This document shows, in pieces, positions 5,020-15,425 of a DNA stretch of 29,277 bases (the first letter of the stretch is position 1; the number at the start of each line of letters is the position of its first letter). Under the pieces are notes generated by a model. The model saw nothing but the letters and a program-made list of their open reading frames with translations, was not told where the DNA came from and did not search any database. Source of the DNA: a virus (taxonomy: Duplodnaviria; Heunggongvirae; Uroviricota; Caudoviricetes). The stretch lies in the IMG/VR virus record IMGVR_UViG_2660238524_000011; one strand, 5' to 3'. A program made the translations under genes and the position numbers.

Positions 5020-6789
5020 TCAGTTGCCGTTAACAATGCTGATAACACTGCTGCGGGCCGGTGTGGTCAGCGTGGCCATGACTTCATCCAGTGCGGCTTC
5101 CGGTACGCCGTCCGGGTACTGTGCCGTTAACTGGCGGTAATGTTCCGGCGTCCAGGTAAGGCCGTCGGCGCTGAACTTATCGCGCAGGGCTTTCGCGGCC
5201 TCCACATGAGTCATGGGACGTTGTTCAGTGCGCGGCCCGCGTACGTCAGAGGCCTGACCACGCTTCGGCATATAGGCCGGAAGTGTGGTGTCGTCGATAT
5301 GTTTATACGGGTCAAGCCGCCCGCCGAACGGCAGCGCCTTCGCCTTGCGTGCGGCGGCTGCATCTGCGGCGTTGTCTGTACCGGTAACCAGCGCTTCGGT
5401 TTCTTTTGCCGCCATCTGTGCCGGGGTTTCCGGCAGGGCTTTGTAACTTTCGCCAAATACCGCCGCGCCTTCAGCAAAGCCAAACTCGTTCTTTCTGACC
5501 TCTTCGACCAGGAAGAACGTCTCGTGGCCGTCCTCACCGGTCAGAACCACCTGTGCCACATCGCTGCGCCATGGGTTACGGGTAATCATCAGTTTTTCAC
5601 CAACCAGTACGCCCGGTACCGTTGATACGTCAAATTCAGTGCCCCGGAACGAGACACGAAGTTTTGGCGTGACTTTGCGGAGTTCTGGTGCCGCCACAGC
5701 CAGTTCACGACATACCTCAACGGAAGGCGCTTTTTTCAGCTGCTCAGCAGTAATCTTCAGCCAGATATCCGTGCGGGTTTTACCGTGGCGGCTGTGAACA
5801 GCCGTGGCGTTAAAGTGGCTGCGCCATTTCGCGGCCAGCGCGTTGAGTTCTTCCAGACTGTGAACCGGCCGGAACTTCAGACCCGGCTCCAGCTTGCGTT
5901 CGATAATGTCACGCGCCTTTTCCACCTGTCCGGTGGCGCGGGCGTTATGCGGCTTGTGCGCTATCAGGTCGATGCCCAGTGAGCGGCACATGTTTTTCGT
6001 CATACCCGCGGTGTTTGCCGAGCCGGGGTCGAGATAGAGTATTTTCGGCACGCCGTGCAGCACGTCTGCGCCGCCACGCTCCTGCATGGCGTTGATAAGC
6101 ACAGAACACAGGTTCTCACCTGATTCCGCGCCCGTCACATACTCAACGTAAATCCAGCCGCTGGCATGGTCGGTAATCTCGTAACTCCACACGCGGTCAC
6201 TGGCGATACGGGCAAGGTTAGCGGGCTTGTTCTTGTAGAACTTCGCGCTGTCCATCACCTGCAGCCCTTTATGTCCATTGCTCAGGTAGTAAAGCGTGCA
6301 GAGTGAGGCGTCAATCTGCCAGACATGATTGGGATGCAGACTGGCCACTTCGGTATGTGGTGCAGGGGCATCCAGTTGTTCCGGGTGCAGGCCATAGTTA
6401 CGCAGAGCACGGCTGATGGCATCTTCAGACAACGGGAAAAACTCACTGGTGGTTTCATCTGTTCTGCCTGCGGTGATAAAGCCGTTAGCCCGCAGGGTTT
6501 CCACTGCATCTGCGATGGAATAGAGACGCTTACCGTTCTTGCGGGTGGCCTCACGCAGTGTGGCAGATATCAGCGCGGCTTCGTCGCGGGTCAGGGCGCT
6601 GCGCCCGGCATCGGCGCGTTTTTTGCGTTTATCAGTCACAGATACCTCCTTCAGCCTGCGCAGCAGAGTGGCGCGGGACATGCCAAGTTCAGCACAGGCA
6701 GCGTCGTATATTGCACCGCGTTTACCATGCCCCGCGTCACGTGCCGCGCGGGCGACATAAACCAGTCGTTCAGTCAGGGCAGCATTCAT
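5020..6789 (-). CDS. DDE transposase (Mu A-like, RNase H-fold integrase core)
   Basis: 589 aa with N-terminal HTH region and candidate DDE residues in HVWQIDAS, LYLDPGSANT and HNARATGQVE. Confidence 0.8.
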   Translation of the reverse strand: MNAALTERLVYVARAARDAGHGKRGAIYDAACAELGMSRATLLRRLKEVSVTDKRKKRADAGRSALTRDEAALISATLREATRKNGKRLYSIADAVETLRANGFITAGRTDETTSEFFPLSEDAISRALRNYGLHPEQLDAPAPHTEVASLHPNHVWQIDASLCTLYYLSNGHKGLQVMDSAKFYKNKPANLARIASDRVWSYEITDHASGWIYVEYVTGAESGENLCSVLINAMQERGGADVLHGVPKILYLDPGSANTAGMTKNMCRSLGIDLIAHKPHNARATGQVEKARDIIERKLEPGLKFRPVHSLEELNALAAKWRSHFNATAVHSRHGKTRTDIWLKITAEQLKKAPSVEVCRELAVAAPELRKVTPKLRVSFRGTEFDVSTVPGVLVGEKLMITRNPWRSDVAQVVLTGEDGHETFFLVEEVRKNEFGFAEGAAVFGESYKALPETPAQMAAKETEALVTGTDNAADAAAARKAKALPFGGRLDPYKHIDDTTLPAYMPKRGQASDVRGPRTEQRPMTHVEAAKALRDKFSADGLTWTPEHYRQLTAQYPDGVPEAALDEVMATLTTPARSSVISIVNGN

Positions 6790-6792
6790 TGG

Positions 6793-7707
6793 TTATGCCT
6801 CCAGCCCGTTAATCTGTGGCGTCGGCTCAGTCAGCCATGAAGGCGCTGCATTGCCTGTTGGCTCGTCCGGCAGGTCAAATGTGGAGCGCAGGCTACGCGC
6901 TGTGCTTTCCAGTTGACAGACCAGGCCTGCCATGAAGTCTCTGGGGGTATCAATCATGTTTTCAGCACAATATGCGCACAGCGTCTCAAAAGCGCTGGAC
7001 AGTCGGACGGCGATAGCAGATTCCGCCTCAACCGCTAATGCTGTTACTTCCGCCCGCAGCTTCTTAACCTCCTCATCAGGCTCAGGCGGCTGAATACGGG
7101 ATTTCTTCTCCAGTCTGGTGGAGAGTGAATCTATTTTTTCATTTTTGTCGGCGAGTACGCGCTGTTGTGCTGCGTTGGTTTCGCGCGCTTCGCGCAGGGC
7201 CTGACGCAATTCACGTACTGACATGCGATCAACGTCGTCAAGCGTCAGGCCGGCAACTGTGCCGCCGTCGGCCAATTCATCAAGTTCTTCATTATCCAGA
7301 ACCATCAGGTCGTACAGTTTGGCTTTCCCCAAAACGCTCAACGTTGAGCGTTTTGTTGGCTCATCACCTTCTCCCAAAAACTTCATACTGGCTTGCATCA
7401 TGCGGCGAGCAACTTGTGGTGCAAGTCCGAGTTCATTTTCTAAAATGTTTGTAAAATCACCGTGTGGCTCATTTTCTTTTAAGATGATCAGCCGCTTACC
7501 CGCTTCCAGCATAGATTCAGCACTCTGCGCCATATAAAAACGTGCTTCGTGAACAATGCGATCACGTTCATAAGGCAGTCCATCACCAAACTGCTGCATA
7601 ATTTCCATGCGATGCTGTGTCATAGCGTTCAAATTGACATTGATGTTATCTGACAGCGGAACCTCAACATTCAGTTCAGTGTTAACGGGTGATTTGGTGC
7701 GTCCCAT
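6793..7707 (-). CDS. conserved Mu-like early protein (304 aa, coiled-coil; copy 1)
   Basis: Immediately upstream of the A gene; paralog at 11101..12021 (about 85% identity by eye). Acidic and coiled-coil rich. Confidence 0.55.
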   Translation of the reverse strand: MGRTKSPVNTELNVEVPLSDNINVNLNAMTQHRMEIMQQFGDGLPYERDRIVHEARFYMAQSAESMLEAGKRLIILKENEPHGDFTNILENELGLAPQVARRMMQASMKFLGEGDEPTKRSTLSVLGKAKLYDLMVLDNEELDELADGGTVAGLTLDDVDRMSVRELRQALREARETNAAQQRVLADKNEKIDSLSTRLEKKSRIQPPEPDEEVKKLRAEVTALAVEAESAIAVRLSSAFETLCAYCAENMIDTPRDFMAGLVCQLESTARSLRSTFDLPDEPTGNAAPSWLTEPTPQINGLEA

Positions 7708-7717
7708 TGATTACTCC

Positions 7718-8026
7718 TTACAAACGACTACCTGAAATAACTCGTTGGTTGATTTCGTTAATACGATCCTGTGCACGCGCCATCTCGTGACTGTGAGCCA
7801 TGGCGATCTGTAGTAACTGGATTCCCGGTGCGAAACGTCCGTTCTCTAATTTCATGGCCAGTCCCTCTTCAATAAGGGTATTAAGTGCTCGATTGATATT
7901 CGCCGGGGACTCCCCCAGGGCTGATGCCAGTTCACCGTTAGAAACACCGTTCAGAGCATGACCGCGTAGAGCTTTGAGTACACGTAGGATGCGGGTCCCA
8001 GAACTGGAAATATTTACTTTACTCAT
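7718..8026 (-). CDS. winged-helix HTH DNA-binding protein (copy 1)
   Basis: Track ORF 7718..8089 trimmed to the ATG at 8026 (MSKVNISSSGTRILRVLKALRGH) by analogy with copy 2. HTH-like segment NGELASALGESPANINRALNTLIEEG. Confidence 0.5.
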   Translation of the reverse strand: MSKVNISSSGTRILRVLKALRGHALNGVSNGELASALGESPANINRALNTLIEEGLAMKLENGRFAPGIQLLQIAMAHSHEMARAQDRINEINQRVISGSRL

Positions 8027-8078
8027 GTCACATTTCCATTTTTGCAATATGTGATAACCTGTTGCATATGTGGAAAAT

Positions 8079-8267
8079 TTATGCCGCATTTGACGTGGGT
8101 TTTAATCCCAGTTTTACGGCAATTTCATGGGCTTTGCCGTAACGAGCTTTGGTCTGTCCATTGAGAACACGATAGACCTCATTGCGGCTGTAGCCGTGTT
8201 CTTCGGCCCAGCGGGTAAACGTGATACCACGCTGACGGAAGAGATTTTTAACTTGTTCGGAAGTCAT
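8079..8267 (-). CDS. Ner-like small DNA-binding regulator (first gene of early operon, copy 1)
   Basis: 62 aa with HTH segment GITFTRWAEEHGYSRNEVYRVLNG. Divergent from the repressor gene and first gene of the leftward operon. Confidence 0.55.
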   Translation of the reverse strand: MTSEQVKNLFRQRGITFTRWAEEHGYSRNEVYRVLNGQTKARYGKAHEIAVKLGLKPTSNAA

Positions 8268-8353
8268 TGTTGTCTCCTTTGTTGATGCAATGATGTTTGT
8301 TTTATATGTGATAGATTATGAGAACTATTGTTCTCATTGTCAATGAGGTTTAT
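8268..8353. promoter_or_regulatory. divergent promoter/operator region 1, with palindrome ATGAGAAC-N4-GTTCTCAT at 8318-8337
   Basis: Perfect 8-bp inverted repeat with 4-bp spacer read directly from the sequence, between divergent Ner-like and repressor genes. TTGATG at 8282-8287 is a possible -35 element. Confidence 0.5.
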
Positions 8354-8779
8354 GTGAATTTTGATTCTCTTTGCGCGTCGCGGTTCAAAGCTGAGCGTTC
8401 GCGGTTATCACTCAAGCAGGCTGAAGTAGCAGCCCTTTGTGGCGTTTCAAGAGAAATGTGGGGGAAATATGAACGAGGGGTTGCTGTTCCCGGAGGTGAG
8501 TTACTTGCAGCCTTTGCAAGAATTGGGGCCAATGTACAGTTCATTCTTACCGGGGAGTCATCAGGTATAACTTTATCACGTGATGAAATGGAGTTACTGC
8601 AGCACTACCGGCAGGCACCATTACAGGTCAAAGGTTCAGTTTTGTCGGCCTTGACTACTGGCTCCTCCAGAGAACGGGCGGAACAGGTTATTCATGGAGA
8701 TGTTCTGGGGAATGTTATCAAAGGTAACGTAACCATAGGAACAGGTGGAATAATGAACAAAAATACCAAGAGAAGATGA
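8318..8779 (+). CDS. XRE/Cro-CI-type HTH repressor (immunity repressor 1)
   Basis: HTH LSLKQAEVAALCGVSREMWGKYERG. The track ATG at 8318 lies inside the operator palindrome and lacks an RBS; in-frame GTG at 8354 preceded by GAGG is an alternative start. Stop overlaps the next start (ATGA). Confidence 0.65.
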   Translation: MRTIVLIVNEVYVNFDSLCASRFKAERSRLSLKQAEVAALCGVSREMWGKYERGVAVPGGELLAAFARIGANVQFILTGESSGITLSRDEMELLQHYRQAPLQVKGSVLSALTTGSSRERAEQVIHGDVLGNVIKGNVTIGTGGIMNKNTKRR

Positions 8780-9762
8780 GTAAAGAGAAGCAAACAGTTA
8801 ACGGGGATGTGGGTAACGTTGTCAGCGGTGATGTTACCATTCATAACTATTCTGCTGACATACTTCCTTCGGCCCAGCAACCAATTTCGTTGCTGCAAAA
8901 ACGCGATTTACACAGATTGATGGATGAATTGGTTGATCTGGGGGAAAGTAAGCGCGAGCTATGGATGACGATCCACACGAAACTTAATACCAAAACAGTT
9001 AATGAAATGACTGCGGCTGATTATCATGGTGCGGTTGAGATCCTTCAGAGATATGCACAACAGATCCAGAATATGAAGGACTGTAATCTTCTGGTCAGCA
9101 AAATAATGGCGCTTACTGACCCTGGGTATCGTCTTGACCGTGACAGATACTGTCTGAAGCATTTCGGTACAACCCATCTTAAAGGCCTAGACAAAGAGCA
9201 GTTGCAGGCTGTGTTTGGTTATTTTGATGATCTGCTGAATATTCGTGATGAGAGTAAAACTCTATCACCTCCATCGGAAAGCGGTGCAAAATCAGTCGCA
9301 ACTGTACCAACCAGAAGCCGGAAGCCTCATGTAGTAGTGTTGGGGGGAGTGTTAGTTCTTGTAGCAATATTTTTCGTGGGAATGATTGTGTTCGCTGGTA
9401 AATGGGGAAATGCCAAAGCAGTAGCTTCTACTGAAACCAGCGTTTTTAACATTAAAACCAACGATAAAATAATAGAAGATTCCATCCCCGCACTGCGCAG
9501 CATGTTTCCAGGGTTAAATAAGTACTCAGATGATTTCCATTCGGTTTCAAGCTACAAGCAAAAAACGGGCTGGCATACCCTTAAATTTACTGTATCAGCA
9601 AAGGCATCCGTCCCCGAAAATTATAGTGTTAAGGGCAAGGTTTGTTACATTAACATAAGCCCTGATGGTAGTTATGCTCGGGTTTTGACTGCTCCATGTC
9701 GTTCACTGCTACTTGATCAGCAAAGCACTCCTGACAGTAAATACCGTTTTATTCTTAAATAG
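8776..9762 (+). CDS. membrane-anchored protein of unknown function (328 aa)
   Basis: Single hydrophobic segment VVVLGGVLVLVAIFFVGMIVFAG between a roughly 165-aa N-terminal domain and a roughly 120-aa C-terminal domain. Visibly AT-rich relative to neighbours. Confidence 0.55.
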   Translation: MSKEKQTVNGDVGNVVSGDVTIHNYSADILPSAQQPISLLQKRDLHRLMDELVDLGESKRELWMTIHTKLNTKTVNEMTAADYHGAVEILQRYAQQIQNMKDCNLLVSKIMALTDPGYRLDRDRYCLKHFGTTHLKGLDKEQLQAVFGYFDDLLNIRDESKTLSPPSESGAKSVATVPTRSRKPHVVVLGGVLVLVAIFFVGMIVFAGKWGNAKAVASTETSVFNIKTNDKIIEDSIPALRSMFPGLNKYSDDFHSVSSYKQKTGWHTLKFTVSAKASVPENYSVKGKVCYINISPDGSYARVLTAPCRSLLLDQQSTPDSKYRFILK

Positions 9763-9843
9763 AAAATAACAGCTGAATTACCATGGGATCAGAAAAAAGA
9801 CAAAGGCGGCATCATGCTGCGTTCTGAAATTTTAATGTAAAAG

Positions 9844-10434
9844 GTGATGAACATGGCAGGGATTCAGGTTATCGCAGGAAGTTTTCCTAAAGGGTGGGCA
9901 AGCATGGGGTTCGGTACCATCGTGTTTGCCAAAAAACCAAAACAAGGCTTTCCTGAAAATATTGTATTAAATCTGAAAGAAGAGCTTTTATCGATTGAAC
10001 TTGCGGATAGTGAAGAGGAAAGCCGTATAGGTAAGGCGGCAGGCGCAGGTTTGCTTGGTGGATTAATCTTTGGTGGTGCAGGGTTGGTCATTGGAGGTTT
10101 GCTTGGTGCGGCGGACAAGACGAAAAAAACTATCACTTTTAAGGCAATGTTTACGGGAAATAGGTTACTTCTGGCTAAAACAGATTCAAAAACTTTTGTA
10201 AAACTTCAGTCAATTGCTGCTGATAATGCCCATAACGCATCTGTAATCAACATGAAGCAAACTAACAGGGGCGATGTTTCTTCTCGTAAACAACTAACAG
10301 AAAATCCACAGCAGCAAGACTTACCTGCGCCCGCTACAACAGTAAAAATGACTGCCAAAGATAAGTTAGAATCGGCTCTTGGGCTGGGAATCATCGTTAT
10401 AGCTGTTTGGGCAATAATACACTTCTTTTTTTAG
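9844..10434 (+). CDS. glycine-zipper membrane protein of unknown function
   Basis: Gly-rich segment GAGLLGGLIFGGAGLVIGGLLGAA and C-terminal hydrophobic helix. Likely start is the ATG at 9853, preceded by AAGG. Confidence 0.5.
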   Translation: MMNMAGIQVIAGSFPKGWASMGFGTIVFAKKPKQGFPENIVLNLKEELLSIELADSEEESRIGKAAGAGLLGGLIFGGAGLVIGGLLGAADKTKKTITFKAMFTGNRLLLAKTDSKTFVKLQSIAADNAHNASVINMKQTNRGDVSSRKQLTENPQQQDLPAPATTVKMTAKDKLESALGLGIIVIAVWAIIHFFF

Positions 10435-10435
10435 T

Positions 10436-10460
10436 GCAGCCCTTCAGGGCTGTTTCTGTT
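10436..10460 (+). terminator. putative intrinsic terminator
   Basis: Hairpin GCAGCCC-ttca-GGGCTG (stem one side one base longer) followed by TTTCTGTT, directly after the stop of 9844..10434. Confidence 0.5.
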
Positions 10461-10471
10461 CAGGAGGTATC

Positions 10472-10768
10472 TTAAGGATTATCCGGGGCGTTTTCCTGTT
10501 TGCCGTACTTCGGAGACGAACAACATTCTGTTGGCTGACCGGTGAGTTTACGTAACTCCTTCATGAGCAGCTCCTGATCGTAAACTGTCATCAGTGCCGC
10601 AATGGTGGCATGCAGTGCATCGGGCAGTATCCAGGGACGCAGCAGAGTGGCGCGGGACATGCCAAGTTCAGCACAGGCAGCGTCGTATATTGCACCGCGT
10701 TTACCATGCCCCGCGTCACGTGCCGCGCGGGCTGTTTCAACCAGTTTTTCAGTCAGTGCCGGGGTCAT
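10472..10768 (-). pseudogene. chimeric in-frame fusion: transposase N-terminus (44 aa) joined to an internal fragment of the P-loop gene
   Basis: 10638-10732 is identical to 6659-6753 (A gene 5' region). 10493-10636 matches 14970-15113 with 3 mismatches in 144 bp. Product is MTPALTEKL...SRATLL followed by RPWILPDALHATIAALM. Confidence 0.55.
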
Positions 10769-10783
10769 AGCTTGTCTTCCCTG

Positions 10784-11101
10784 TTATCCGATTCTGGCGG
10801 CAATTTTTCTGGCGAGGTCGCACAGTGTTTCGCCATCGCAGGTTTTCACCACGGTATTTACCGGTTGCGGTGCAACTACCGGGCGTAATGCTGACTGATT
10901 CTGCAGACGTCTTATCTGCTGCATCAGCATCACCTCCATCGTCAGTACAAACGGGTGCGTCTCCTGTGCGGGTACGCAGATTTCACCGGAAGGGGTCACC
11001 ACGCGGAAACCCTGCACCATCTCCGGCAGCAGATTACACAGTGCGTGCCCCAGTGCCTCCGGGCTGTCCATCAGGGTATTTTGTGTGTTATTCGTATTCA
11101 T
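10784..11101 (-). CDS. hypothetical protein (105 aa), present only in control module 2
   Basis: Start abuts the stop of 11101..12021. No counterpart between the 304-aa gene and A in copy 1. Confidence 0.35.
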   Translation of the reverse strand: MNTNNTQNTLMDSPEALGHALCNLLPEMVQGFRVVTPSGEICVPAQETHPFVLTMEVMLMQQIRRLQNQSALRPVVAPQPVNTVVKTCDGETLCDLARKIAARIG

Positions 11102-12021
11102 TACTGCATATCCTCCGGTCGGTTGATTTCAGGTTCCGGTTCGGTCAGCCAGGCGGGGGCATCGTTACCCGATGGAGCGGCCTCAAGGTCAAACGTCTCA
11201 CGTAATGCATGAACACTGCGTTCAATCTGGCAGACCAGACCGGCCATGAAATCTCTGGGGGTATCGATCATGTTTTTGGTGCAGTATTCACACAGGGTCT
11301 CAAAAACACTGGACAGCCGGACGGCGATAGCCGATTCGGCCTCAACCGCTAATGCCGTCACTTCCGCCCGCAATTTTTTCAGTTCTTCGTCTGGCGGCGG
11401 AGGTTGCAGGCGCGATTTCTTCTCCAGTTTTGTGGCCAGTTCGTTGATTTTTTCGTCCTTTCCGGCAAGCACCTGTTGCTGAGCTGCGTTGGTTTCGCGC
11501 GCTTCACGCAGGGCGGCCTTCAGTTCGCGGCTGGTCATGCGATCAATATCATCAAGCGTTGCACCGGCGACGGTTCCACCATCAGCTAATGCGTCGAGTT
11601 CTTCGTCATCCAGAACCATCAGTTCATATAACTTGGTTTTTCCCAAAACGCTCAGCGCTGAGCGTTTTGGCTGTTCATCTCCATTGCCGAGAAATTTCAC
11701 GCTGGCCTGCATCATGCGACGAGCTACCTGTGGTGCTAATCCGAGGTCGTTTTCCAGAATATTTGTGAAATCACCATGCGGTTCATTTTCTTTTAAGATG
11801 ATCAGCCGCTTACCCGCTTCCAACATAGATTCAGCACTCTGCGCCATATAAAAACGTGCTTCGTGAACGATGCGTTCACGTTCATAAGGCAGTCCATCAC
11901 CAAACTGCTGCATGATCTCCATGCGATGCTGTGTCATGGCATTCAGGCTGACGTTGAGATCATCCGACAGCGGTACATCGGCGTTCAGTTCAGTGTTAAT
12001 CGGTGATTTGGTACGTCCCAT
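11101..12021 (-). CDS. conserved Mu-like early protein (306 aa; copy 2)
   Basis: Paralog of 6793..7707. Confidence 0.55.
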   Translation of the reverse strand: MGRTKSPINTELNADVPLSDDLNVSLNAMTQHRMEIMQQFGDGLPYERERIVHEARFYMAQSAESMLEAGKRLIILKENEPHGDFTNILENDLGLAPQVARRMMQASVKFLGNGDEQPKRSALSVLGKTKLYELMVLDDEELDALADGGTVAGATLDDIDRMTSRELKAALREARETNAAQQQVLAGKDEKINELATKLEKKSRLQPPPPDEELKKLRAEVTALAVEAESAIAVRLSSVFETLCEYCTKNMIDTPRDFMAGLVCQIERSVHALRETFDLEAAPSGNDAPAWLTEPEPEINRPEDMQ

Positions 12022-12031
12022 TGATTACTCC

Positions 12032-12340
12032 TTACAAACGACTACCTGAAATGACACGTTGGTTAATTTCGTTAATACGATCCTGTGCACGTGCCATCTC
12101 GTTACTGTGGGCCATGGCGATCTGCAGTAACTGGATGCCCGGTGCAAAACGTCCGTTCTCCAGTTTCAGAGCCAGCCCTTCTTCAATGAGGGTGTTGAGT
12201 GCCCGGTTGATGTTTGCCGGTGACTCGTGCAGTGCTGTCGCCAGTTCACCGTTAGAAATACCGTTCAGGGCATGACCGCGCAGCGCTTTGAGTACCCGGA
12301 GGATGCGACTGCCGGAGCTTGAAACATTCGTCTTACTCAT
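12032..12340 (-). CDS. winged-helix HTH DNA-binding protein (copy 2)
   Basis: Paralog of 7718..8026. Start at the ATG at 12340 (MSK...) with AGAGG RBS 7 nt upstream. Confidence 0.5.
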   Translation of the reverse strand: MSKTNVSSSGSRILRVLKALRGHALNGISNGELATALHESPANINRALNTLIEEGLALKLENGRFAPGIQLLQIAMAHSNEMARAQDRINEINQRVISGSRL

Positions 12341-12392
12341 CTGCATACCTCTTTTGCGATATGTGATAACCTTTTACAAAGACTCAAAATAT

Positions 12393-12581
12393 TTAGGCCG
12401 CCTGAGCTGTTGATTTCAGTCCCAACTTCACGGCGATTTCATGGGATTTACCGTAACGGGCTTTGGTCTGCCCGTTGAGAACGCGGTATACCTCATTGCG
12501 GTTGTAGCCGTTTTCTTCTGCCCAGCGGGTGAAAGTGATCCCGCGCTGGCGGAAGAGAGCTTTGACTTGTTCTGCAGTCAT
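12393..12581 (-). CDS. Ner-like small DNA-binding regulator (copy 2)
   Basis: 62 aa, about 87% identical to 8079..8267. Confidence 0.55.
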   Translation of the reverse strand: MTAEQVKALFRQRGITFTRWAEENGYNRNEVYRVLNGQTKARYGKSHEIAVKLGLKSTAQAA

Positions 12582-12674
12582 CGTTGTCTCCTTTGTTGAT
12601 GCAATGATGTTTGCCTTATATGTGTTAGATTATTGCTCATAATTATGAGCATATCAAGATAGAGATTCACTTTT
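12582..12674. promoter_or_regulatory. divergent promoter/operator region 2, with 18-bp palindrome TGCTCATAATTATGAGCA at 12634-12651
   Basis: Perfect palindrome read from the sequence; a third half-site TATGAGCA overlaps the repressor 2 start codon at 12674-12681. Confidence 0.5.
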
Positions 12675-13031
12675 ATGAGCAAAGATATAGGAGAGCGCGT
12701 TATTTCTGTGAGGAAGAAAGCAGGGTTGAACCAGAGAGAATTTGCAGCTCGTTTAGGTATTTCTAATGGTGGTATCAGTCAGATTGAAAATGGAAAGGCG
12801 ATGCCTGGAGGGGAGTTTCTGTTAAAGATGCATCAAGAGTTTAATGTTGATGTAAATTGGTTGCTCACTGGAATGAGCACAGATGGTATGACTAGAAACC
12901 AGAATCAAATTTCCCCAGAAAAACAAAAACTAATAGATACTTTTGACGACATGACACCAGACCAACAACGCTCATTTCTTGAGATTGGGCGATTCTATAC
13001 TCAGCCAAAACCAGGAAAAATCGCAGGCTGA
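12675..13031 (+). CDS. XRE-type HTH repressor (immunity repressor 2)
   Basis: HTH LNQREFAARLGISNGGISQIENG. Unrelated to repressor 1 outside the HTH core. Confidence 0.65.
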   Translation: MSKDIGERVISVRKKAGLNQREFAARLGISNGGISQIENGKAMPGGEFLLKMHQEFNVDVNWLLTGMSTDGMTRNQNQISPEKQKLIDTFDDMTPDQQRSFLEIGRFYTQPKPGKIAG

Positions 13032-13116: not shown

Positions 13117-13148
13117 ACCGGAAAGCATTGTGCTTTCCGGTTTTGTTT
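13117..13148 (+). terminator. putative intrinsic terminator
   Basis: 10-bp stem ACCGGAAAGC/GCTTTCCGGT with 5-nt loop, followed by TTTTGTTT. Downstream of repressor 2 and abutting the Dam stop codon. Confidence 0.55.
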
Positions 13149-13910
13149 CAGAAGTTGCAGATTAGCAGTTCACGGCGCGGCGTGGGTTTACCCGCCAGAC
13201 TGTAGTTGATATTCACTGTCTGTATGTTCAGTCCAGTGAACACCTCGCGCATCTGCGGGATGTCGTTCACCGAAATTATCATTTTTCCTCTGATGCACCG
13301 GGCCAGCTCTGCCAGCCGCGAGTAGTTCCCTTCAGGAAAATCCACACCATAGCCTTCCGTACCCAGGTACGGTGGGTCGCAGTAGAACAGCGTGTGCGGA
13401 CGATCATAACGCTCAATGCACTGTTGCCAGTCCATGTGTTCTATGACTGTTCTGGAAAGCCGCAGGTGTGCCGCTGACAGTTCTTCTTCAATACGTAGCA
13501 GGTTGAAGCGTGGCGGGGATGTGGTGGAGGTACCGAAGCTGTGCTCTGCCACCTTGCCGCCAAACGCCTGCTTCTGAAGGTAGTAGAACCGTGCCGCACG
13601 CTGGATATCCGTCAGTGTTTCTTCCGGGGTGATCTGCAGCCATTTGTAGATCTGACGGCTGACCAGCGCCCATTTGAACTGGCGGACAAATTCTTCCAGG
13701 TGATGCTTTACCACCCGGTACAGATTCACCAGTTCACCGTTGATATCATTGATGACTTCGATCTTGCCGGGTGTCTTAAGAAAATAGAGCGCTGCTGCCC
13801 CACAAAACGGCTCCACATAACATTCATGCGCCGGAAACAGCGGCAGAATGTGTTTTGCAAGGCGGCGTTTGCCACCAATCCACGGCACGATGGGTAATGT
13901 CTGCATTTTC
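13148..13910 (-). CDS. dam: DNA adenine methyltransferase (Dam-like, D12-class N6-MTase)
   Basis: DPPY catalytic motif (FYCDPPYLG) and N-terminal SAM-binding region (IVPWIGGKRR ... VEPFCGAAA). Track ORF trimmed to the ATG at 13910 (MKMQTLPIVPW). Confidence 0.75.
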
Positions 13911-14102
13911 ATAATCTGCAAGCCTTTTACAATTATTAAAAAATATGGCAGTCTGGTCAGGTCTCGCGAGACTGACTGAACCTTGGTCGGCTCACAGCGC
14001 ATTCCTGTGGGGCGATGACCAGCCCGGCTTTCGGGTGCCGGGCTGGTCGTTCTTTCATGATGCGGCAGGGATGGCGGGATTTCTGTTAATGTGGTTTAGG
14101 GA

Positions 14103-14318
14103 TTATCCGGGGCGATTTTCTGACCTTATCCGGTCCAGGGCATAAGTAATACCTTCTGCAAAAACAGAAGTATCAAACTGCTTTTGTATTCCCTGAAAAT
14201 GAAAAGCGGCACGACAGACACTCAGTTCTCCGCGGTATAACCGGATAATATCTTCCAGAACATTGTTCACTGCTTCAGCACGGCGCTGATGTTCTGTTAA
14301 CGTTAATCGGGGATTCAT
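14103..14318 (-). CDS. hypothetical protein (71 aa)
   Basis: Strong AAGGAG RBS 7 nt upstream of the ATG at 14318. Confidence 0.45.
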   Translation of the reverse strand: MNPRLTLTEHQRRAEAVNNVLEDIIRLYRGELSVCRAAFHFQGIQKQFDTSVFAEGITYALDRIRSENRPG

Positions 14319-14721
14319 GATGCACTCCTTAAATGATGATTTTTATGTACTCACCGGCAAAATATTCTGCCGATTACTGAACACGCATCCGGCACCTCAG
14401 GTTTTGATTTATTCTGGTTTTTTCGATATCCCGGACCAGGTTGATCACGACCAGAAAAAGTGCCGGTGTTTTATTGATACGCTGATATGGCTTCGGGATA
14501 ACAGCTATATTCGTTACTCTCAGTTGCTGGCTGTGGGAGCGGCTGATGTCGTCCTCACGGAAAAAACGCTCTGTCTGCTCAATGCCATGCCGACCTTTCT
14601 GCAGCCCCGGCCCGTACCATTTAAAGAGTCACTTCTGGATGCAGTAAAAACCGGTGAAAATGCAGTCATCGCTGAATGCGTATCCCGGATTATGCGTTAC
14701 GTGTTTAATGAACGTAAGTGA
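14317..14721 (+). CDS. hypothetical protein (134 aa)
   Basis: ORF fills the 378-nt gap between minus-strand genes. Its start codon overlaps the divergent start of 14103..14318 (CATGATG); 3' end converges on and overlaps the P-loop gene. Weak GGGGA RBS. Confidence 0.35.
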   Translation: MMHSLNDDFYVLTGKIFCRLLNTHPAPQVLIYSGFFDIPDQVDHDQKKCRCFIDTLIWLRDNSYIRYSQLLAVGAADVVLTEKTLCLLNAMPTFLQPRPVPFKESLLDAVKTGENAVIAECVSRIMRYVFNERK

Positions 14722-15425
14722 GGTTTATCCGCTGTCTGCATAATCCCGATAGCCAGTGCGAGGGGAAGTAATTCCGGGGAAACTCTTTCAAACAGCGATG
14801 CCCATTCTCCTCTCGCCATCACTCTGTCCAGCCCGCCCTCCAGTTGCATTTCAGCAATCTTCCTGATTTCCCGGAACAACGCCGCTTTGATCTCTTCATG
14901 CTCAGCTTTATTTTCCGGTGTCAGAAGGTATTCGTCGAAGAACCGGGGAGGCTGGTTAATCGGGATGTGTTCCTGTTTGCCGTACTTCGGGGACGAACAA
15001 CATTCTGTTGACTGACCAGTGAGTTTACGTAACTCCTTCATGAGCAGCTCCTGATCGTAAACTGTCATCAGTGCCGCAATGGTGGCATGCAGTGCATCGG
15101 GCAGTATCCAGGGTTGCCGGCCCGTGGGGCATATAACATCCAGCAGCTCATTCGTCCGACAGATACGCTCCTCGCCGTATGACAACAGGCCCTGTCCCGT
15201 GTATTCCTCCAGCCTGATCACTGTGCCAGCCCGTGGTTTCTGCCATGTGCTCAGATCATCCCCACTCATACGGCGCTCACCGTCCACGTCTGCGGCGTCG
15301 ACAATGACGCTGTTTCCGAATTCCTGTTTCACCACTTCCTCTATTCGCGCCAGTACGTAACTTTTACCGCTGCCCACAGGACCGGACACGGTGACAGTGA
15401 TGACCGGATTCAGTGTCTGCGTCAT
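14697..15425 (-). CDS. P-loop NTPase-like protein of unknown function (242 aa)
   Basis: N-terminal Walker A-like SGPVGSGKSY. GAGGAG RBS 8 nt upstream of ATG at 15425. Confidence 0.5.
   Translation of the reverse strand: MTQTLNPVITVTVSGPVGSGKSYVLARIEEVVKQEFGNSVIVDAADVDGERRMSGDDLSTWQKPRAGTVIRLEEYTGQGLLSYGEERICRTNELLDVICPTGRQPWILPDALHATIAALMTVYDQELLMKELRKLTGQSTECCSSPKYGKQEHIPINQPPRFFDEYLLTPENKAEHEEIKAALFREIRKIAEMQLEGGLDRVMARGEWASLFERVSPELLPLALAIGIMQTADKPHLRSLNT

Follow-up and report, generated by a model that had tools for sequence, protein, structure and literature searches.

The DNA analysed here (hereafter the window) is the 29,277-nt IMG/VR record IMGVR_UViG_2660238524_000011, an E. coli transposable Mu-like prophage with a B3/BcepMu-type layout. 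It contains an XRE-type repressor gene that is transcribed rightward from position 8318, divergently from a Ner-like early operon, and two genes, here called orfA and orfB, that follow the repressor directly on the same strand. In the original prediction, orfA and orfB were taken as a two-gene membrane module for phage exclusion or abortive infection. Its description of the open reading frames (ORFs), the ATGA overlap at 8776-8779, the single transmembrane (TM) helix of orfA, the glycine zipper of orfB and the downstream hairpin was accurate, both genes indeed lie in the lysogenic (repressor) transcript, and hydropathy and predicted TM helices identify both products as membrane proteins. The best reading of the segment is that it holds two separate things, namely an orfA that is partnered with the repressor and an unrelated orfB cassette. 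The features of this segment are as follows.

8318-8779, + strand: prophage repressor, 153 aa, with an XRE-type helix-turn-helix (HTH) domain at residues 22-68 and a conserved C-terminal module
8570-8668, + strand: helical module of the repressor, residues 85-117, TLSRDEMELLQHYRQAPLQVKGSVLSALTTGSS, which sits behind several different HTH types
8675-8761, + strand: tail motif of the repressor, residues 120-148, RAEQVIHGDVLGNVIKGNVTIGTGGIMN, invariant among relatives
8776-9762, + strand: orfA, 328 aa, predicted bitopic inner-membrane protein with the N-terminus inside and the C-terminus outside
8782-8850, + strand: head motif of orfA, residues 3-25, KEKQTVNGDVGNVVSGDVTIHNY, predicted to be disordered in the monomer (predicted local distance difference test score, pLDDT, 43-45)
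8866-9258, + strand: Flk_N all-helical cytoplasmic domain of orfA, residues ~31-161 (AlphaFold2, AF2, pLDDT >90)
9331-9399, + strand: TM helix of orfA, residues 186-208, after a basic RSRKPH (Kyte-Doolittle hydropathy 3.05; AF2 helix 190-205)
9436-9759, + strand: periplasmic alpha/beta domain of orfA, residues 221-328, with two conserved Cys (AF2 pLDDT >90)
9788-9852, + strand: conserved leader of orfB, ~65 nt, at which homology to Citrobacter begins despite a different upstream gene
9853-10434, + strand: orfB, 193 aa (196 aa from GTG 9844), PHROG 12025
10436-10463, + strand: terminator-like hairpin and T-rich tract, predicted to close the repressor-orfA-orfB transcript

The HTH domain of the repressor was recognised by Pfam HTH_31 (E 4.7e-7) and also by HTH_3, and its sequence matches in the PDB include P22 C2 and 434 cI. 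The protein lacks a LexA-like self-cleavage domain. The helical module that follows the HTH domain is invariant in Escherichia, Serratia and Yersinia even though the HTH half diverges, and its pattern, (D/E)ExxLLxx(Y/F)RxAPxxxKxxxLxxLTxG, also occurs in P2-like and other loci. When the C-terminal 78 aa were used as the query, only five close matches and no domain name were obtained. The true start of the repressor is uncertain, because its homologues begin approximately 12 codons further in, at the equivalent of an alternative GTG start at 8354 of the window, yet the N-terminal extension is kept at the protein level in the Mu-like locus L012.

The ATG of orfA lies within the ATGA (8776-8779) that also contains the TGA of the repressor, and the two genes are co-transcribed and translationally coupled. 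The orfA protein is a member of PHROG 10002, and an identical protein represents a cluster of 345 sequences that is assigned to Pfam PF27202 (Flk_N); the PF27202 assignment is a precomputed match on this 100% identical representative (P0001) and its relatives, weak for some of them. In an AF2 model built on 22 homologues, residues 1-29 are disordered (pLDDT ~44), and a disordered linker separates the helical domain from the TM helix. Only one hydrophobic stretch is present (residues ~186-208). The basic residues that precede it and the homology of the C-terminal domain to lipoproteins indicate an N-in/C-out topology. No convincing structural analogue of orfA was found among solved structures or viral predicted structures.

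An HTH gene followed by a downstream gene with an ATGA overlap is also the classic layout of type II toxin-antitoxin systems, and the antitoxin models MqsA, HipB and PezA show weak, HTH-level similarity to the repressor. In such an addiction system, orfA would be a membrane toxin that is neutralised by the repressor tail and would stabilise the prophage or time post-induction events. We consider this quite improbable. The antitoxin matches reflect the generic HTH only, with scores far short of the family cut-offs, neither orfA nor orfB matched a toxin family in Pfam, PADLOC or NCBIfam, and the repressor gene has the standard place of an immunity gene, divergent from Ner-like or Cox-like genes.

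A gene for a Flk_N protein follows an XRE-type repressor at every locus examined, with a gap of -4 to +34 nt in 24 of the 26 loci (two sub-family Flk_N alignments were used for locus finding, a wide alignment being too diverse). The Mu-like loci with the pair are the window, L004, L007, L008, L012, L013 and L029-L036, in which Ner-like, IclR-like HTH, DUF3102 and transposase genes lie upstream of the pair and a holin gene lies downstream. The pair is also present in P2-like loci (L014 and L017-L027) between a Cox-like gene upstream and an integrase gene downstream; the hosts of these include Yersinia, Mixta, Rosenbergiella, Buttiauxella, Izhakiella, Erwinia, Enterobacter, Hafnia, Serratia and Arsenophonus. 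The HTH halves of the Flk_N-paired repressors differ, and the C-terminal helical module and the tail are common to them. This portable C-terminal part, joined to different HTH domains, always travels with a Flk_N protein. Conversely, no Flk_N gene is present in six related Mu-like loci, representing four distinct contexts, whose repressors have other C-termini and lack the tail (a second repressor of the window, L039-L041, the Citrobacter locus L009 and KP12). The gene layout of the Citrobacter loci L010 and L011 is the same as that of L009. No discordant combination of tail and Flk_N gene was seen among the intact loci examined, and Flk_N pseudogenes occur in endosymbionts and in phage 520873.

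In Escherichia phage 520873 (NC_049344, a P2-like Xuanwuvirus; L038), the pseudogene is an unannotated, frameshifted Flk_N gene at ~2280-2900, between the repressor and integrase genes. The repressor of this phage retains the tail (NISGGNNRIAGRDYNETKGR), and the Flk_N remnant retains the head (NSNGSNNRVAGRDFHEKN).

In all 26 intact loci, a G/N/V-rich motif of 10-24 aa is common to the tail of the repressor and the N-terminal head of the Flk_N protein. The motif changes between lineages, yet tail and head agree within each pair, as the following examples illustrate.

Window: tail HGDVLGNVIKGNVTI, head NGDVGNVVSGDVTI
L012: tail FHGSVGQVIKGD, head FHGDTGVVAGGD
L018: tail GNRVAGRDFNENK, head QNRVAGRDFNENK
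L020: tail NRAAGRDY, head NRAAGRDF
L032: tail QQFNGPVGSVTSGDVVN, head QQFNGAVEQVAAGDIKN
L034: tail NRAAGRDYHE, head NRAAGRDYIE
L016, repressor 2.7 kb upstream of the Flk_N gene: tail QVAGDLGQNVTGNVNIKGGFNMGG, head QVAGDVGMVSHGTVTINGGLNVGG (score 70)

Local alignment of the 25 adjacent cognate pairs gave scores of 35-79 (mean 54.8), compared with a mean of 33.4 for non-cognate tail-head pairs and 18.3 +/- 4.2 for shuffled heads, and none of 5000 random re-pairings reached the observed mean. In the window, the pair scores 52 over 21 columns and the two motifs are reciprocal best matches, the next best match among the six-frame ORFs scoring <=34. The motif residues hardly vary in either protein, in contrast to the diverging HTH half of the repressor; the head of orfA, in particular, is nearly invariant although the homologues are 45-82% identical overall. 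The core [VI]-x-x-G-[RDN]-[DV] is common to all motif classes, one of which (NRVAGRDFNENK) is highly charged. In the pooled matched segments, N (2.9x), G (2.3x), V (1.8x) and Q (1.5x) are enriched, L (0.09x), P (0.09x) and K (0.6x) are depleted, and I is not enriched (0.9x).

Two trivial sources of this similarity were ruled out. The non-adjacent pair of L016 still matches, so the similarity is not a by-product of the gene junction, and duplication at the junction can be dismissed. Codons are shared at 118 of the 260 positions with identical residues, near the 109.9 expected from codon usage. The match is therefore kept at the protein level and is not due to gene conversion. The strict co-occurrence of orfA with one repressor family and the co-varying terminal motif also speak against the earlier view of orfA as acquired cargo.

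Three further features of the motif were observed. The heads of class 1 (L014 and L017-L027) contain a second half-repeat approximately 10 residues later (NRVAGRDFxE ... GRDxVNI). The class represented by P0059, P0061 and P0071 has an N-terminal extension of ~30-40 aa before 'GN..N(I/V)NFGTQ(L/V)N(I/F)'. At the variable position of NR[V/A/I]AGRD, the tail and head residues are the same in 9-10 of 15 pairs, against ~5 expected.

An exhaustive profile search of the orfA family returned 112 representatives (at 50% identity) in two groups, and no HTH-Flk_N fusion protein was present among them. The first group consists of Flk_N proteins, mostly of 185-220 aa; by a strict test, 29 of 40 Flk_N relatives have a hydrophobic C-terminal tail anchor, and several more have a weaker one. 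The second group consists of stand-alone periplasmic proteins (lipoproteins or N-anchored proteins) that are homologous to the C-terminal domain of orfA. The two parts are fused only in the close relatives of orfA and in P0038. In L006/L007 and L013, a short Flk_N gene is followed by a separate gene for a lipoprotein similar to the orfA C-terminus (E 9e-16 and 3e-19), and in the Mu-like KP12 the periplasmic-domain lipoprotein occurs alone, behind an unrelated tail-less repressor. Because it stands alone elsewhere, the periplasmic domain appears to be a separable unit that was fused to a Flk_N anchor in the orfA lineage. The periplasmic-domain proteins, mostly lipoproteins, carry the signature LPxIRxxFPGLDKYA...GHNCFIEI...C, and some are 270-370 aa long with extra C-terminal parts. 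In Mu-like prophages they fill the same moron slot, whether or not a Flk_N gene is present (window, 9436-9759; L006, 5627-6160; L013, 4638-5165; L037, 2986-3519).

The C-terminal part of phage repressors such as lambda CI and those of 434 and P22 is generally the part that receives signals and mediates oligomerisation. The translational coupling of the two genes, the tethering of orfA with a cytoplasmic head, the strict co-occurrence and the co-variation of the motifs suggest an interaction between orfA and the repressor by way of the shared motif. The model that we favour, with roughly even confidence, is that the membrane-tethered orfA contacts the repressor via this motif and controls its availability. 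The repressor and orfA would be made from one transcript, coupled through the ATGA, and orfA would be placed in the inner membrane with its Flk_N domain and disordered head in the cytoplasm and its sensor-like extra domain in the periplasm. The head and tail motifs, or the motif and the Flk_N domain, would then contact each other. Control would run from orfA to the repressor, which would be captured, held or converted at the membrane, and this would set the amount of active repressor that reaches the operators. The outcome would be a membrane- or envelope-linked input to the lysogeny/induction switch of a repressor without LexA-like self-cleavage. The signal may be received by the periplasmic domain in the case of orfA, and a membrane- or cytoplasm-borne cue is a candidate for the tail-anchored majority.

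Several points weigh against this model. Constant 1:1 co-expression of a repressor and a sequestering partner would need an extra gating step. Most members of the family are tail-anchored without a periplasmic domain, so envelope sensing is not the general signal, and a periplasmic domain of the orfA type is found as a free lipoprotein behind the tail-less repressor of KP12. The frameshift in the Flk_N gene of the deposited phage 520873 indicates that the gene is not essential for the phage. Finally, recognition of both proteins by a third factor would explain a shared motif equally well.

Such a factor might be a host protease, an adaptor or a membrane chaperone that recognises both the tail and the head without any direct contact between them, and orfA would then serve as a decoy, competitor or adaptor that tunes repressor turnover. 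This may be likened to lambda CIII, which competes for FtsH, and the stability of the Mu repressor depends on its own C-terminal tail and ClpXP. The location of both motifs at exposed termini that are predicted to be disordered, and the presence of the core in all motif classes, are consistent with this explanation. However, a fixed host factor predicts one motif, whereas divergent classes are matched pairwise within closely related hosts, and no third motif-bearing ORF was found in a six-frame search of the 29-kb window or in the 26-kb reference prophage. We therefore regard recognition by a third factor as improbable.

The model of repressor capture by orfA has partial precedents. Inactivation of a repressor by sequestration is known for Qtip (PMC11323111). 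In the sequestering antirepressors (Qtip of VP882, Gifsy), a small partner binds the regulator, which is the logic that we propose; however, the known antirepressors are soluble, are separately transcribed only on induction and have no motif in common with their repressors. Membrane anti-sigma factors resemble orfA as membrane-anchored partners that are co-transcribed with, and translationally coupled to, their targets, but they have ASD or zinc-finger domains, which orfA lacks. No description of a repressor-Flk_N pairing or of a matched tail/head motif was found in the available literature on Flk with prophages or repressors and on membrane sequestration of phage repressors.

Among Flk_N proteins, only Flk/Fluke (RflH) of Salmonella and E. 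coli has been characterised. It is cytoplasmic with a tail anchor, its binding to FlhA-C was detected by two-hybrid assay, and it holds flagellar export in the early state of the switch (PMC13344023). It is similar to orfA in its homologous Flk_N helical domain and its single-TM tether in the inner membrane, and in that Flk binds a cytoplasmic partner and holds a switch in one state, a likeness to the logic proposed for orfA (PMC13344023). The two differ in several respects. The single Flk_N unit of orfA contrasts with the internal repeats of Flk, and the Flk-like tail-anchor architecture is replaced in orfA by a TM helix followed by a folded 120-aa domain. Only orfA has this periplasmic domain and a repressor-matched head, and orfA is phage-encoded and paired with a repressor, whereas Flk is paired with the flagellar apparatus.

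The Flk_N homology and the binding of FlhA-C by Flk (PMC13344023) raise the idea that orfA mimics host Flk, binding FlhA-C and altering flagellar assembly in lysogens. We consider this very improbable. The NCBIfam Flk model PRK10715 (NF007987) matches only residues 19-147 of orfA (E 2.9e-12), and the score of 46.6 bits falls far short of the 353 bits needed for the equivalog cut-off; in a BLASTP comparison with E. coli K-12 Flk, orfA shows 25% identity over 133 aa (E 1e-5). Mimicry of Flk would also leave the repressor-matched head and the strict link to one repressor family unexplained.

The matched terminal motifs recall the amyloid-signalling pairs of bacteria, which have been defined by a criterion of score >=40 and length >=15 together with composition bias (bioRxiv 10.1101/2020.01.06.895854); Bab/Agp is an experimentally studied abortive-infection system of this kind in E. 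coli prophage hotspots (bioRxiv 10.1101/2024.11.07.622273). As in the Bell/NLR BASS pairs and in Bab/Agp, adjacent genes encode a motif of ~15-25 aa, C-terminal in one product and N-terminal in the other, which is conserved within pairs and diversified between them and is rich in N, G, V and Q and poor in L, P and K. A score >=40 and a length >=15 were found for 22 of our 26 pairs. However, here an HTH repressor is paired with a Flk_N protein, and not an NLR/TPR sensor with a Bell/HeLo-type executioner; no NLR/STAND, TPR, Bell, HeLo or Babybell domain was found in the pair by Pfam, no PADLOC model matched it, and the repressor-Flk_N motif matches no known amyloid-motif family of Pfam. The resemblance thus appears to be one of logic and composition only.

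It is possible, although rather unlikely in our estimation, that the tail/head motif is a prion-like (amyloid or beta-solenoid) templating element. Clustering of the membrane Flk_N protein, driven by a cue from the membrane or envelope, would allow the head motifs to nucleate a cross-beta fold, which would recruit and convert the repressor tail and remove the repressor from DNA. The switch to prophage induction, or to cell killing if the direction is reversed, would then be all-or-none and self-propagating.

The defence function put forward in the original prediction can be reconsidered against these data. The repressor and orfA would form a sensor-effector pair like cI-RexA-RexB or Bab/Agp, in which an incoming phage disturbs the repressor or orfA, the shared motif transmits the disturbance, and membrane damage or a block of DNA entry follows; the membrane actor would be orfA, possibly together with the glycine-zipper protein orfB. 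This is compatible with the position of the genes in the lysogenic operon behind the repressor and with the membrane location of both products. A C-terminal/N-terminal motif shared by adjacent genes is a hallmark of Bab/Agp (bioRxiv 10.1101/2024.11.07.622273), the number of pairs reaching the thresholds and the composition bias fit as well, and the orfA periplasmic domain and orfB act as free-standing prophage cassettes, like exclusion genes. The positional analogy to cI-rexA-rexB also holds. As in lambda cI-rexA-rexB and P22 sieA/sieB, genes for membrane proteins lie on the lysogenic transcript of the repressor. However, neither orfA nor orfB has sequence or fold similarity to the lambda Rex or P22 Sie proteins, RexB is polytopic whereas orfA and orfB are not, and the Rex proteins share no motif with cI. 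A search of defence models did not bear out the predicted role: neither protein matches a PADLOC model, RexA, RexB or SieB (the best PADLOC match of orfA was PDC-M19B with E 0.014, orfB had none, and Pfam and NCBIfam gave nothing relevant). Moreover, orfA has a single TM helix, lacks pore-forming, Bell-like and HeLo-like domains and yielded no structural analogue. The membrane protein here carries the N-terminal, sensor-side motif, which is the opposite of the polarity in the known amyloid-signalling pairs, and orfB is not linked to orfA. We therefore consider it unlikely that the repressor and orfA constitute a defence system; a part in exclusion or abortive infection is most conceivable for orfB and for the periplasmic domain of orfA.

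The third gene of the transcript has a different distribution from orfA. In Citrobacter, orfB directly follows a CI-type repressor and no Flk_N gene is present; in Serratia the third gene is missing, in Yersinia it is replaced by a gene for an unrelated 249-aa membrane protein, and at other loci by further unrelated genes. The idea of a two-gene module thus has to be abandoned, and orfB behaves as an independent moron cassette that was placed in the lysogenic transcript and has no tie to orfA. DNA homology between the window and Citrobacter extends from ~65 nt before the orfB ATG to the orfB stop codon. This leader could hold its own promoter, with a TTTAAT-like sequence as the candidate -10 element, or a regulatory element. 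The RefSeq start of orfB is at 9853 and is preceded by an AAGGTG ribosome-binding site. The glycine zipper (AAGAGLLGGLIFGGAGLVIGGLLGAA) is encoded at 10036-10116, and a long linker leads to a C-terminal hydrophobic TM helix at 10360-10431. Homologues of orfB with 72-97% identity (P0026, P0027 and P0032) have a precomputed match, marked weak, to PF27000 PH_gly_zipper. The AF2 model of orfB is of low confidence (pLDDT 35.7), and the predicted order of secondary structure, four beta strands, the zipper, two beta strands, a helix, the linker and the TM helix, fits a PH-like fold split by a glycine zipper. The family (PF27000/PHROG 12025) has no known function, and orfB adds to it the long linker and the C-terminal TM helix; orfA and orfB both belong to catalogued families of no known function. 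A role of orfB in exclusion or another form of lysogenic conversion is a reasonable guess. Behind orfB, the hairpin at 10436-10453 has a 7-bp stem with five GC pairs, followed by TTTCTGTT (-13.1 kcal/mol). Although it is the only terminator-like site in 7900-11000, it is not exceptional (z -1.6; shuffled sequences give 2.8 sites), and its assignment as a terminator is plausible but modest.

The early operon on the other side of the repressor comprises the following features.

5020-6789, leftward: DDE transposase
6793-7707, leftward: DUF3102 protein
7718-8089, leftward: IclR-like HTH protein
8079-8267, leftward: Ner-like protein
8315-8343, - strand: predicted sigma-70-like promoter of the divergent Ner-like/transposase operon (TTGACA-17-CATAAT)

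The promoter was called by consensus match alone (11 of 12 positions), and it overlaps the annotated ATG of the repressor at 8318. The low GC content of the segment was noted earlier as a sign of AT-rich cargo. The values themselves stand, 0.42-0.43 for orfA and orfB against 0.54 for the whole window, but the repressor (0.46), the Ner-like gene (0.48) and the second repressor (0.41) are similarly low. Low GC content therefore marks the whole immunity region and does not distinguish orfA and orfB as cargo.

The repressor-orfA-orfB block is 100% identical in many complete E. coli genomes, at differing chromosomal sites, and at least 80% of the segment 8250-10470 is present in 97 of 5426 such genomes. 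In complete genomes, the block is followed by a small P-loop gene, a holin gene, an SLT gene and late genes. In approximately 530 further E. coli genomes, this prophage family is present but has another, shorter repressor and lacks all the genes considered here. The phage genome collection contains almost no relatives.

Downstream of orfB, the window departs from this order. The early and immunity region recurs at 10637-13031 as an incomplete second copy, so that two immunity regions are present in tandem. The features of this part are as follows.

10472-10768, - strand: in-frame chimeric ORF with a junction at 10636/10637 (...ATLLR/PWILPD...)
10784-11101: 105-aa ORF, second region
11101-12021: DUF3102 protein, second region
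12032-12346: HTH protein, second region
12393-12581: Ner-like protein, second region
12675-13031: second repressor, 118 aa, with no tail motif and no Flk_N gene
13148-14002, - strand: Dam-type methyltransferase (Pfam E 8.7e-29)
14697-15425, - strand: full-length P-loop protein, 242 aa

The chimeric ORF consists of 54 codons from the end of the P-loop gene that usually lies behind orfB, followed by the initial 44 codons of a second DDE transposase gene. Its junction was found in none of the 5426 complete E. coli genomes, and it results from a rare deletion between two related prophages in tandem or else from chimeric assembly. From the second region rightward, the window matches the common prophage type of E. 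coli (L040). A 71-aa ORF and a 134-aa ORF also belong to the cargo that follows the second repressor (13148-15425), and the C-terminal part of the P-loop protein in this cargo matches the P-loop remnant at 10472-10636. The tail-less repressors of L039-L041 and of 12675-13031 share another C-terminal module, KQKL(I/M)DxFDxM(T/S)PxQ(Q/R)RxxLE(I/V)G(R/K)x(Y/F)xxPKPxK(I/L)AG, behind differing HTH halves. The module is a putative second portable C-terminus of repressors.

The repressors of Mu-like phages and of many P2-like phages lack a LexA-type cleavage domain, and what triggers their release is poorly understood. A conserved, coupled and motif-matched membrane partner is a concrete candidate for the missing input to these repressors. 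The novelty lies in the partner domains and in the biological target of what is otherwise a shared-terminal-motif pair or a membrane-tethered regulator of a transcription factor. The logic of shared terminal motifs, previously tied to cell-death immunity, would thereby be extended to the control of a transcription factor. If the motif does prove to be prion-like, this would be the first case of amyloid-type signalling that acts on a transcription repressor, it would extend across Mu-like and P2-like phages, and the switch would give these RecA-independent repressors an induction pathway. Our analysis also offers a first context-based role for phage Flk_N and for the repressor C-terminal module, two recently defined families without a known function, and may shed light on how host Flk engages its partners. 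Approximately 2% of complete E. coli genomes, clinical lineages among them, carry the module, which could affect prophage induction and phage susceptibility.

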